Of a stretch of 64,000 nucleotides of DNA, positions 1 through 16,024 are shown piece after piece. The notes beneath the pieces were generated by a model, which saw only the letters and a list, made by a program, of their open reading frames with translations, searched no databases and was not told the origin of the DNA. The translations under genes were made by a program, and so were the position numbers. Numbering within the stretch: position 1 is the first letter of the stretch; every line of letters begins with the position of its first letter. Source of the DNA: a virus; IMG/VR virus record IMGVR_UViG_3300005288_000001, positions 32,001-96,000 of that record. One strand, given 5' to 3'.

Positions 1-46
1 TTATACCATTCATTCACGGATTTACCGTGACGATACCACTTTTCGA

Positions 47-367
47 TTAAGGCTTCCATAGCGGGAATCCTTTCAGAAAGTGTCGTTCGCTTTGGATCAG
101 TGGTTCAGTGGCGAAAGCCGTATGACCATAGTTCCAATCCGGTTCAAAGAACATCTCGCTCCTAATCCCGCAGTATTCACAGTGGGCTTTGGCTCTATGG
201 AGGCTCTCTGCATCGGGAACAGTTAGCATAATAAGTGACGACGGTTCTTTAGAAACAGCCCCAAACACGATACCAGCCTCTAGCGCCGCATGGGCAGCTT
301 GGACTACTTGATCGGTTAGTGGAAGGTCCTTTCGAACAAACACATACACGTAGGTTTTATCCAACAC
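47..367 (-). CDS. Peptidyl-tRNA hydrolase 2 (Pth2)-like protein
   Basis: YVFVRKDL...QVVQAAHAALE and FFEPD..TAFAT resemble Pth2-fold phage proteins. In frame with the upstream ORF across a single TGA (368-370). Confidence 0.7.
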   Translation of the reverse strand: MLDKTYVYVFVRKDLPLTDQVVQAAHAALEAGIVFGAVSKEPSSLIMLTVPDAESLHRAKAHCEYCGIRSEMFFEPDWNYGHTAFATEPLIQSERHFLKGFPLWKP

Positions 368-556
368 TCACGATTCCATTTTGATTTCCTTTAGTAAATT
401 TCGTTTAAAGACGCTGCGAGCATGTTTATGCTCTTTCTTCTTGTCTCTAGCACGAGCCTTTTTAGAGCGTCGGCTAGAATAAGTTTCACAAGGATACTTA
501 TCATGCCCTGGGCAGCACCATCCAGGAGCACAGACAAAAATAATTTCTCGTTTCAT
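368..556 (-). CDS. Small basic Cys-containing protein (MKREIIFVCAPGWCCPGHD...)
   Basis: ATG at 556, just after the tRNA CCA. Lys/Arg-rich; ends in TGA in frame with the Pth2-like ORF. Confidence 0.5.
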   Translation of the reverse strand: MKREIIFVCAPGWCCPGHDKYPCETYSSRRSKKARARDKKKEHKHARSVFKRNLLKEIKMES

Positions 557-557
557 T

Positions 558-634
558 TGGTGGCCCGTGGGGGATTCGAACCCCCGACATTCGGTTTTGA
601 AGACCGCCGCTCTAACCAACTGAGCTAACGGGCC
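558..634 (-). tRNA. tRNA with UCA anticodon (opal suppressor, Trp-like anticodon arm)
   Basis: Cloverleaf: acceptor GGCCCGT/ACGGGCC-A-CCA, anticodon loop CTTCAAA, T-arm GGGGG-TTCGAAT-CCCCC. No Sec-type long arm. Confidence 0.9.
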
Positions 635-641
635 ATATCTA

Positions 642-1760
642 TCAGAAGGCGTGGAAGTTAAAGCCACCCGATTCAGGTTGGGGCTTGACCACGCGAACCA
701 GGATACGGTTCTTCTCAACAGGAGTGATGTACTCGTAAACGATGCTACCACCCTTCTCGATCTTCAGCACGCGCTCATCACTCAGCTCGAAGTCCGGACA
801 CTCGAAGTACAACGGATTGTCCTCAGCGTCCTTCTTACCGTTCGGAACGCCGTAGAAGTCCATTTCAGGCTTGCTATTGGCATCCGAGACCAGAGGCGAA
901 CCACGCAGCTGACGCGGGTGGTAGAAGCTCTCGAGAACCTTCTGGCCGTTGATCGAGACTTCGACGTCGTACGCACGGGTCGTCAGGTCGAACTCGAGAC
1001 GAGCGTTCACGTTCTGCATTGCGCTCGGTGCCGATTCGCTGTAACGGTTCATTTCTTCAACGACCGCTGCGAGCATGTCGAAGTTGAAGTTCGTGAAGCA
1101 GTCGGCGATGAGCACCAGACGATCGATTTGGGTCTTGTCGTTCAGGCAGTCTTCACAGTACTCGCGAATGAACTCAGCAGTCAGGCCACGATACGTATAC
1201 TGGTAGTAGATACGACCAGGACGGTTACGCATGTGGGGGTCGATGTAACCGGAGTTCATCGTCAGCAGGAAGAGCTTCTTGCTGGAGAATACACCGTCGA
1301 GCAGGGTCAGGAGCTTTTCCTGATCATCCTTATCGTACACCTTCTCGAACTCATCGAACAGCACCACGCAGGGTTGCTGGATGGTTTGGATAAACTTGTT
1401 GAAGCTATCGCCGTGGAAAGGAGTGTTGATGATCAAGGTTGGCACATTGTGCGTCTTGGCCAATTCAATCGACAGGCTCTTGGTCAGGAGCGTCTTACCC
1501 GAACCCTTTTCACCCGACAGCAGGACGCCAGTCGAACGAGGGCGGTCCATGAAGGTCTCGATGATACGGTCGCGGCGACCATCATTGGCACCGTAGACCT
1601 TCTTCGGCAGGGTAAACGTGTCAACTTCCTCGAGGAAGAACACGCCGAACTGGTCGATCTTCACGACGTAATTCGTGTTGGCCGGCAGAGCGTCATAAAC
1701 ATCCAGCGAACGACTGTCCTTAACTTGGACCGTGTTACCGCTCTTAAAATAATGCGTCAA
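642..1760 (-). CDS. AAA+ ATPase
   Basis: Walker A GEKGSGKT, Walker B VVLFDEFEK, sensor TMN, arginine finger RPGR. Confidence 0.85.
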   Translation of the reverse strand: MTHYFKSGNTVQVKDSRSLDVYDALPANTNYVVKIDQFGVFFLEEVDTFTLPKKVYGANDGRRDRIIETFMDRPRSTGVLLSGEKGSGKTLLTKSLSIELAKTHNVPTLIINTPFHGDSFNKFIQTIQQPCVVLFDEFEKVYDKDDQEKLLTLLDGVFSSKKLFLLTMNSGYIDPHMRNRPGRIYYQYTYRGLTAEFIREYCEDCLNDKTQIDRLVLIADCFTNFNFDMLAAVVEEMNRYSESAPSAMQNVNARLEFDLTTRAYDVEVSINGQKVLESFYHPRQLRGSPLVSDANSKPEMDFYGVPNGKKDAEDNPLYFECPDFELSDERVLKIEKGGSIVYEYITPVEKNRILVRVVKPQPESGGFNFHAF

Positions 1761-4314: not shown

Positions 4315-4438
4315 TGGTGCCGATGGCCGGATTCGAACCGACGTCTCGTCCTTGAAATGGAGTGTAAAGTATGCTGGACAGAACCTTGTCAGGCTCCGGT
4401 TTGGTACATACGCGTGCTAACCATTACACCACATCGGC
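4315..4438 (-). tRNA. tRNA-like RNA (anticodon TTC) with 49-nt insert in the anticodon stem
   Basis: Acceptor, D and T arms are intact. Deleting 4362-4410 gives a 75-nt cloverleaf with CGTCC-ATTTCAA-GGACG. Confidence 0.75.
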
Positions 4439-4527: not shown

Positions 4528-4601
4528 TGGTACCCAGTGAAAGTAACGCTCTTTCGTTCTCGCCTTATCAAGACGCCGTTCTACTTTTGAACTAACCGGG
4601 C
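4528..4601 (-). tRNA. tRNA-Ile(GAT)
   Basis: Loop TTGATAA, T-loop AGCGTTA, CCA end. Confidence 0.85.
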
Positions 4602-4917: not shown

Positions 4918-4992
4918 TGGAGAGGCAAGTAGGTATCGCGCCTACCTTTACAGGGTTGCAATCTGTCACACATCTGTCTATGTCATTGCCTC
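4918..4992 (-). tRNA. tRNA-Cys(GCA)
   Basis: Loop TTGCAAC, U73, CCA end. Confidence 0.8.
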
Positions 4993-6669: not shown

Positions 6670-6747
6670 TGGTGGGGCAGGGTGGACTTGAACCACCGAC
6701 TCACCGGTGCAAAACCCGGCCGCTCTAATTCACTGAGCTACTACCCC
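6670..6747 (-). tRNA. tRNA with 8-nt anticodon loop (GTTTTGCA), identity undetermined
   Basis: Canonical acceptor, D and T arms; GCCGG-GTTTTGCA-CCGGT. Confidence 0.7.
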
Positions 6748-15032: not shown

Positions 15033-16024
15033 TATTCCTCACCCTCTTCGATCCAAACAAATTCCGACGCATCCCATTCACGGTGATACTGATTACCAAT
15101 TCCACTGAAGAAGTCGTTGAACGAGTATCCATTGATACCGTCATAGAACCAGTCAGCGATAGGGTTGTATTTCACTTCATAAATCTTTTCAAGACCCAAC
15201 TGTACCAGCTGTTCGTTGATACGTGATTGGGAGAAGTGATTCATTTGGAGACAAGTGATACCGGAGATCGTTCCCTTTTCAAAGATTTTCTCATTGATTC
15301 GGCATTCATGTTCATAGAGTTGTCGCGCAGCTGCATAGATCAGGGAAGTAACTTCCTCGAATTCTTCATCGGATAGCTGCTGTTCTTTCAGCAGCTCACG
15401 GAAGCACCAGGCGCCACCAAGGGCGTGGATGTTCTCATCGCGTACCGAGAAGTTAATGCCGCGCACGATGTTGGTGAGCTTATTCTTTCCTTGGCTTTGG
15501 AAGTGCTTGAGGAATGCAAACGAGCTATAGAGAATTGCGCCTTCGACCATGGAGAAGACGGCGAGGGATACAAGGTCAGATGGATGACTGAGAATATTGT
15601 CAATAAACTCCATTCGATCGTTGAGGACCGGGTCATTGACATATCCAAGATAGAAGTCATCGGTATTGAGGTGGAGTAACTCATTGATCTTGTTGTAGAA
15701 GGGAGCGTGTACAGCCAGTTCAAACATACTGAACACGGAACCCATACGAGTAAACTCGGGACGGGGGAACATTGTCTTGAACCGTCCGGACCAGTACTCG
15801 TCACCAGCCAGCAGTTCATACTTCGTAAACAGTCGTAAAGTGGTAATGACTCCGTGCTTCTCAGCAGGAGTCATATTCACCAAGATATCTTGAATATCCT
15901 TCTCGACTTTTACTTCACCATGAAGCCAAAAGACCGCCAATTGCTTGTCGGCCAGGGTGATTGGCTCTTGGTACTTAACGACGTATGACTCTGTCGGCGT
16001 TTGAATTCTTGTTTTTGCCGACAT
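15032..16024 (-). CDS. nrdB: Ribonucleotide reductase class I beta subunit
   Basis: FW..E, E.AVH..FY, EG..LYSSF, RDENIH. Confidence 0.95.
   Translation of the reverse strand: MSAKTRIQTPTESYVVKYQEPITLADKQLAVFWLHGEVKVEKDIQDILVNMTPAEKHGVITTLRLFTKYELLAGDEYWSGRFKTMFPRPEFTRMGSVFSMFELAVHAPFYNKINELLHLNTDDFYLGYVNDPVLNDRMEFIDNILSHPSDLVSLAVFSMVEGAILYSSFAFLKHFQSQGKNKLTNIVRGINFSVRDENIHALGGAWCFRELLKEQQLSDEEFEEVTSLIYAAARQLYEHECRINEKIFEKGTISGITCLQMNHFSQSRINEQLVQLGLEKIYEVKYNPIADWFYDGINGYSFNDFFSGIGNQYHREWDASEFVWIEEGEE

Follow-up and report, generated by a model that had tools for sequence, protein, structure and literature searches.

We analysed by computation a stretch of 64,000 nucleotides (the window), corresponding to bases 32001-96000 of the phage record IMGVR_UViG_3300005288_000001 (IMG/VR; complete, 172,501 bp, with terminal repeats). 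The locus at the beginning of the window, on the minus strand, appears from its sequence to be the opal (UGA/UCA) form of a conserved phage module, a reading to which we assign a probability of about 0.68. The module comprises a suppressor tRNA, a gene with the fold of peptidyl-tRNA hydrolase 2 (Pth2) that carries an early stop codon, and a gene for an HD-type hydrolase. The Pth2-like enzyme is probably made mainly when the tRNA with anticodon UCA, tRNA(UCA), overrides this stop. The odds that the gene is gated in this way are about two in three for this phage and higher for the family. The features of the locus are given below, with the evidence in brackets.

558..634, minus strand: opal-suppressor-type tRNA, anticodon UCA, class I, A73 (ARAGORN, Rfam, cloverleaf fold, alignment with suppressor and Trp tRNAs)
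368..556, minus strand: gene for a 62-amino-acid (62-aa) Cys-rich basic protein, phrog_5428, ending at the gate TGA (PHROG, homologues)
387..391, minus strand: Shine-Dalgarno (SD)-like AAGGA, 7 nt before ATG 377-379 (sequence; layout matched in 80/90 gated relatives)
368..379, minus strand: mini-frame ATG GAA TCG TGA, which closes the 62-aa gene and also serves the Pth2-like gene as its leader (sequence; relatives have ATG-(0-7 codons)-TAG)
368..370, minus strand: gate UGA, G at +4 (positional homologue of the TAG in loci L051 and L005)
362..367, minus strand: GTG TTG straight after the stop, possible suppressor-independent restart codons (sequence)
47..367, minus strand: predicted Pth2-like protein, 106 codons past the gate (Pfam sub-threshold, AlphaFold2, Foldseek)
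1..59, minus strand (genome 31574-32059; L144:1675-2160): first part of the gene for the HD-type hydrolase, 161 aa, phrog_14850 (PHROG, AlphaFold2, fold)

Read along the minus strand, the gate consists of AAGGA (387-391), a seven-nucleotide spacer, ATG (377-379), GAA, TCG, TGA (368-370), GTG (365-367), TTG (362-364), GAT and AAA. The frame beyond the TGA runs GTG TTG GAT AAA ACC TAC GTG and onwards for 106 codons to a TAA at 47-49, and the TGA lies six codons ahead of the YVYVF strand, exactly as the TAG does in L051 and L005. tRNA(UCA) sits 188 nt upstream on the same strand. The first-pass annotation of this DNA had described the same layout, with the TGA at 368-370, an ATG preceded by a ribosome-binding site and an in-frame 62-aa open reading frame (ORF), and its coordinates proved correct.

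In the mechanism that we propose, ribosomes would start at ATG 377-379, behind the SD-like AAGGA, or would arrive from the 62-aa gene, and would then encounter the UGA at 368-370. The hydrolase frame would be entered only if tRNA(UCA) beats release factor 2 (RF2). Because the stop precedes the folded domain, the inserted amino acid would be irrelevant, and failure would cost only a tetrapeptide. No stable or stimulatory RNA structure was found near the gate (z = +1.3). Readthrough itself and its purpose are what we infer here; the anatomy, the conservation of the stop, its match to the anticodon and the folds are set out in the following paragraphs.

Relatives of the locus were collected from 23 IMG/VR loci, 80 metagenome loci and GenBank phages, and all loci were processed by script. 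The usable set contained 111 loci, which formed 64 clusters at 85% identity. An early gate stop was present in 21 of the 23 IMG/VR loci and in most of the 80 metagenome loci. TAG gates were counted in 89-92 of the 111 loci, depending on the treatment of GTG-started leaders and of XacN1; one locus, L115, has a TAA gate, and around 15 loci (for example, RaK2 and Hallingskeid) are ungated and have a normal ATG. The GenBank phages ME3, Kaldavass, CBB and Arash show an SD motif, an ATG, one to three codons and a TAG, followed by the conserved core without a start codon. The first-pass annotation had suggested looking for an in-frame stop at this position among phage Pth2 homologues, and the result was positive, as the stop occupies the same position in about 90 loci.

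The gates comprise 56 distinct sequences. The ATG and the stop are separated by no sense codon in eight of them (ATG TAG), by one in 27, by two in 12, by three in five and by more in four. Of 90 gated loci, 80 have an SD-like motif ahead of the stop in an SD-spacer-ATG layout. At +4, 40 gates carry A, 15 carry G and one carries C, which amounts to a purine in 55 of 56, against a background of 52%. Work in E. coli by Bossi and by Miller and Albertini reportedly found that a purine after the stop favours suppression by tRNA. Given the purine in 55 of 56 gates, the gate context favours suppression. No ATG, GTG or TTG occurs between the stop and the core in the roughly 90 gated relatives, apart from L010, in which an ATG stands directly behind the TAG. 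The stretch after the stop opens with a Val codon in seven gated relatives, and this codon is GTG in none of them.

The kind of stop also matches the kind of tRNA found nearby. A tRNA(CUA) on the same strand lies in the fetched flank of 49 TAG-gated loci, at a distance of 0.1-0.7 kb where it is upstream and of 0.8-4.3 kb where it is downstream, and no tRNA(UCA) was found beside those 49 loci. When the loci were clustered at 85% and restricted to those flanked by 4.5 kb or more of sequence on each side, tRNA(CUA) was present in 14 of 23 TAG-gated clusters and in none of six ungated clusters (Fisher p = 0.017). The short tRNA(CUA) pattern missed the known tRNAs of XacN1, and we therefore draw no conclusion on absence for RaK2, Hallingskeid and LR756511. 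Arash-like L027 carries a tRNA(UUA) at 15138-15216 besides its tRNA(CUA).

The closest relative, L051, shares 72% identity in the Pth2-like protein and 83% in the downstream HD gene. Its contig edge holds the 3' part of a tRNA(CUA), and 40 bases further on stands ATG ATG TAG ATC GAA GAG AAA ACC TAC GTG. The same codon is thus TAG with tRNA(CUA) in L051 and TGA with tRNA(UCA) in this phage. A second TGA/UCA pair was found in Atu_ph07, where a profile search recovered a canonical Pth2 gene that begins ATG ATT GGC GAA CAC TTT TGA ATT AAT; no start codon follows the stop. The tRNA(UCA) of Atu_ph07 at 430.7 kb, reported in PMC6102473, was confirmed by Rfam and ARAGORN; another pattern match in that genome proved not to be a tRNA.

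The locus L012 carries a four-base variant. Its ATG frame runs for ten codons to CAG TAG G, and the Pth2-like core lies in the +1 frame; decoding UAGG as a single codon would lead exactly into that frame. A tRNA located 500 nt upstream presents CCUA in an enlarged anticodon loop (L012 9404-9481 and 9961-10000). Across the family, then, the blocking codon changes along with the unusual tRNA of each phage. The first-pass annotation had called the locus a self-contained readthrough cassette, and this description gains support from the stop conserved in about 90 loci and from its agreement with the anticodon of the nearby suppressor.

The gated protein itself is predicted to be a Pth2 relative. 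The AlphaFold2 model, built with an 18-sequence alignment, reached a predicted local distance difference test (pLDDT) score of 93 and a predicted template modelling score (pTM) of 0.86. In Foldseek, the top 12 PDB matches were all Pth2 structures (among them 3erj, 1rlk, 1q7s, 1wn2, 1xty and 2zv3), with template modelling (TM) scores of 0.73-0.81 and E values from 4e-6 to 1e-4; at the level of the model, the Pth2 alpha/beta fold is confirmed. A profile of the 18 relatives against PDB sequences gave a weak match to peptidyl-tRNA hydrolase (E 0.12), and a six-frame search of the genome returned no match to PF01981. The Pth2-like part was found by tblastn in 33 GenBank phage records, often unannotated or truncated. 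The gene of Arash has been called only as a 50-aa fragment, and the annotated start of XacN1 ORF364 lies five codons past an SD-ATG-AAG-TAG (L030 5455-5480; AP018399.1 ~243.7 kb).

The HD-type gene overlaps the stop codon of the Pth2-like gene and runs past the window edge. Its protein matches phrog_14850 (PHROG E 1.5e-42), and in 71 of 112 loci the gene directly adjoins the Pth2-like gene; in XacN1 ORF364 the HD-type protein is fused N-terminally to the Pth2-like domain. The invariant residues are H11, H53-D54, H74, D98 and H102. The AlphaFold2 model has a pLDDT of 97, and its best structural match is 3wfo_A residues 258-447 ('tRNA processing enzyme', Z 12.2), followed by many HD phosphohydrolases at Z 7-9, the HD domain of glycyl-tRNA synthetase among them. 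The pairing of an ester hydrolase with an HD phosphohydrolase suggests that the two act on tRNA 3' ends. An in-frame TAG also occurs inside the HD-type gene itself in three lineages, after ...LDTG or ...DLPP: in the CBB-like L003 (1986-1988), in L006 (10468-10470) and in L009 (10479-10481). GenBank annotates the CBB gene as two ORFs; the window copy is without such a stop.

The tRNA(UCA) at 558-634, already proposed in the first-pass annotation, was recovered by ARAGORN as a 77-nt gene, and its 72.8 bits against the Rfam tRNA model are the top score among the tRNAs of the first 8 kb. The cloverleaf is normal (7/4/5/5, with a 5-nt variable loop), and the anticodon, complementary to UGA, lies in a 7-nt loop. 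A tRNA-Sec identity was rejected, as the acceptor stem has 7 bp, the T stem 5 bp and the variable loop 5 nt, with plain tRNA as the best Rfam family; this shape also rules out selenocysteine or pyrrolysine decoding. The anticodon arm is one base from that of tRNA-Trp, as had been stated in the first-pass annotation, but nothing points specifically to descent from tRNA-Trp: the arm is equally one base from that of the phage tRNA-Ser(UGA), the sequence outside it is only 73% like tRNA-Trp, and base 73 is A instead of G. An exact-match search of IMG/VR with this tRNA found none. A promoter and terminator scan of the minus strand gave nothing above the shuffled expectation, and since no such signal separates the tRNA from the genes, tRNA(UCA) and the downstream genes are likely co-transcribed.

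Further tRNA genes of the window lie on the same strand. One, at 6670-6747, has an 8-nt anticodon loop (GUUUUGCA), an ARAGORN anticodon of 'tttg' and 50.3 bits in Rfam, and could be a four-base decoder. Rfam adds three tRNA-like genes beyond those of ARAGORN, at 4318-4438, 4531-4601 and 4921-4992; the first of these (121 nt) may hold an insert or intron.

The 62-codon ORF between the tRNA and the gate spans 371-556, shares the frame of the Pth2-like gene and ends AAG GAA ATC AAA ATG GAA TCG TGA. Its product is a full-length match to phrog_5428 (E 2e-28), and the C-terminal KEIKME is kept in phiR1-RT and Serratia phage 92A1, T4-like Yersinia/Serratia phages in which no Pth2-like gene follows. 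The ORF is an independent conserved gene, outside any conserved fusion with Pth2. Such a fusion was ruled out, because the two halves match different phages and no record covers at least 80% of the joined query. The ATG of the 62-aa gene (window 554-558, minus strand) lies one base past the 3' CCA of tRNA(UCA) and is without an SD motif; processing of the tRNA 3' end would yield a nearly leaderless mRNA for this gene.

The genome has 49% GC and 23 tRNA genes, and it is not recoded. In agreement with the first-pass annotation, TGA is a normal stop; it terminates 75 of 259 crude ORF calls (~28% of genes), and the gene layout is dense and intact under the standard code (code 11). Total ORF length compared under other codes did not discriminate. 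The same annotation had considered the upstream ATPase gene to end in a readthrough-proof TGA TAG. This double stop exists (639-644), but it reflects no trend: among 55 long genes that end in TGA, a second stop follows at once in only 5, and the next stop lies a median of 16 codons away; tandem back-up stops as guards of TGA-ended genes were thus ruled out.

Searching the whole genome for SD-ATG-(<=3 codons)-TGA-long-ORF arrangements yielded one plausible case, the Pth2-like gene. A second candidate at genome position 29939 was a false match, as the real gene uses an overlapping ATG in another frame, and the stretch 29.9-31.5 kb contains ordinary genes. Same-frame adjacent gene pairs with a single stop between them occur 18 further times. 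In this genome alone the gate layout is within chance, and its significance stems from the relatives. The phage has no close sequenced relative; a megablast query with the first 8 kb matched no GenBank phage. The AAA-type ATPase (window 642-1760, minus strand) is closest in GenBank to that of Microbacterium phage Pumpernickel (51% identity), and other window genes resemble those of enterobacterial phages.

Several explanations compete with gating by the tRNA. Under ordinary translational coupling, the 62-aa gene would simply end at the TGA, ribosomes would restart at the abutting GTG or TTG, and tRNA(UCA) would have another role or none. The locus offers some ground for this: TGAGTG joins a stop to a start and has a weak GGAA 7 nt before the GTG, the 62-aa gene is genuine and other phages conserve its C-terminus, the genome has its 18 other same-frame neighbour pairs, and L010 also places an ATG right behind its TAG. 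However, the stop stands at the exact codon where about 90 relatives hold a gate without a start behind it; its type fits the neighbouring tRNA, whereas the closest relative pairs TAG with CUA; and the strong SD motif has the spacing expected for ATG 377-379 rather than for the GTG. We therefore regard coupling as unlikely, yet deserving of serious attention. Clearly less probable is a prfB-like sensor of RF2 level or activity, the role favoured by the first-pass annotation, in which readthrough would rise when RF2 is scarce. Readthrough is indeed a contest between suppressor tRNA and release factor, and UGA is read only by RF2. Nearly all relatives, however, use UAG, a codon of release factor 1 (RF1), one has UAA and one the quadruplet UAGG. 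The conserved partner is the tRNA, and what all forms share is a private tRNA/codon pair, so that the design is not RF2-specific; no gene related to release factors was seen in the module. The sensor proposal is not supported by this comparison.

Two further explanations would remove any function from the stop or spread it over the genome. If the gene were decaying or the sequence faulty, the TGA would have arisen by nonsense mutation or through an error of assembly, and tRNA(UCA) would be unrelated to it. The genome is a single metagenome-derived IMG/VR record, which leaves room for error, but the downstream frame is intact with a model pLDDT of 93, the stop position is conserved across 64 clusters, and the gene, the tRNA and the HD partner are all retained; this makes decay or error highly improbable. 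A partial code change of the kind known from code-4 or code-25 phages, in which TGA would stand for an amino acid in numerous genes, deserves even less weight and is extremely unlikely here. It would account for the presence of tRNA(UCA), but more than a quarter of the genes (~28%) use TGA as their stop, code 11 gives closely packed genes without interruptions, and only one early in-frame TGA candidate exists.

A number of observations weigh against gating in this phage, and we consider them together. The stop abuts a real upstream gene, GTG and TTG follow it at once, and the residues MES are the conserved C-terminus of phrog_5428, with no dedicated leader. Termination and reinitiation could thus make the 106-aa protein without tRNA(UCA). 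This phage and L010 are the only gated loci with a canonical start right after the stop, and the GTG/TTG of the window break the module pattern; in this phage, they may add some tRNA-independent expression. Expression and charging of tRNA(UCA) are putative, and A73 argues against charging by the bacterial tryptophanyl-tRNA synthetase. Suppression must also be weak or context-limited, because strong suppression should be costly for a genome in which 55 long genes end in TGA without enriched back-up stops.

Other points against the proposal come from the family and from the protein. Nine well-flanked gated clusters have no tRNA within 6-10 kb, and the ungated homologues L116 and L123 are still near a tRNA(CUA). 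Two of these nine clusters are explained by a tRNA elsewhere in the genome: RsoM2USA has its tRNA(CUA) 13 kb from the gated gene (also PMC8504454), and XacN1 has two tRNA(CUA) in its terminal repeats (PMC5852040). The Pfam PTH2 match (PF01981) reaches 15.7 bits (E 0.018), under the 23-bit gathering score. Catalysis by Pth2 involves two residues, a Lys in its GK motif and an Asp that precedes its G.T motif. In the hidden Markov model alignment, a near-invariant Gln is aligned to this Lys, and the residue before Y80-G81 is N in this phage, D in most relatives and E in some. The hydrolase chemistry of the Pth2-like protein is accordingly described here as putative.

We nevertheless prefer gating by the tRNA. 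The amber, opal, ochre and four-base forms of the module share a codon that host tRNAs cannot read, and Pth2-like expression is thereby tied to one dedicated phage tRNA. In the purpose that we favour, which is unproven, the private codon ties the dose of the hydrolase to a tRNA that ordinary decoding can spare. If the hydrolase acted on the ester bond of the suppressor tRNA, a self-limiting loop would result. A more elaborate version, which we consider speculative and rather unlikely, would make the suppressor an orthogonal 'sensor' tRNA: the Pth2-like/HD pair would strip acyl groups and phosphate from tRNA 3' ends, for example after the action of host tRNA-targeting toxins, and would deacylate its own gate tRNA, giving a substrate-sensing autoregulatory switch in which amber, opal, ochre and four-base codons are interchangeable.

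The gene prfB has an early in-frame UGA passed by a +1 frameshift, by which it senses its own product without a dedicated tRNA. The present locus likewise places an early in-frame stop in a gene of translation-factor type, the synthesis of which would hinge on the decoding of that stop; unlike in prfB, passage would depend on a tRNA encoded alongside the gene, and any feedback from the product is hypothetical. With the archaeal and eukaryotic Pth2 proteins (PF01981; 3erj, 1q7s, 1wn2, 1xty, 2zv3), the predicted protein shares the alpha/beta fold and a Q..HA helix motif, but the identity is 14-23%, under the Pfam cut-off, and the GK motif is missing, so that it is best described as a predicted relative. 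Phages that recode stop codons with their own suppressor tRNAs reassign TAG or TGA in late genes (Borges et al., bioRxiv 10.1101/2021.08.26.457843). As in those phages, a phage tRNA would read a stop while the host keeps the standard code. They have many in-frame stops in many genes, whereas here a single stop is placed at the fourth codon of one gene, next to the tRNA.

Closer parallels are the suppressor tRNAs of XacN1, RsoM2USA and Atu_ph07, which are of the same kind and likewise belong to standard-code lytic phages. The XacN1 paper could identify no target for them (PMC5852040), and the papers on RsoM2USA (PMC8504454) and Atu_ph07 (PMC6102473) assumed many possible targets. A homologue or analogue of the gated gene is present in each of these phages, and in contrast to these orphan suppressors the early-stop gene here supplies a specific target. 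Engineered amber-suppressor gates and feed-forward loops combine a suppressor tRNA with an in-frame stop as an AND gate against leaky expression (PMC7969014). The phage module would have the same AND-gate design, but it is natural and conserved across many phage lineages. A full-text literature search found no paper that connects a suppressor tRNA of a phage with a Pth2 gene interrupted by a stop. As far as the sequences indicate, what is new at this locus is a clean switch from TAG/CUA to TGA/UCA between close relatives, an inserted 62-aa gene whose last codons appear to act as the leader, and a possible GTG/TTG leak; the candidate UAGG/CCUA intermediate of L012 is new as well.

Suppressor tRNAs recur in large standard-code lytic phages and have been left without a target in genome papers, and the gated gene offers them a concrete, testable job. 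The gated gene is truncated or missed by gene callers and is unannotated in many GenBank records. Its association with an HD-type hydrolase suggests chemistry at tRNA ends, a subject that bears on the arms race over tRNA-targeting defence systems. If the proposed gating is true, these phages would possess a natural form of gene-specific control by a private codon/tRNA pair, a device that synthetic biologists build deliberately.

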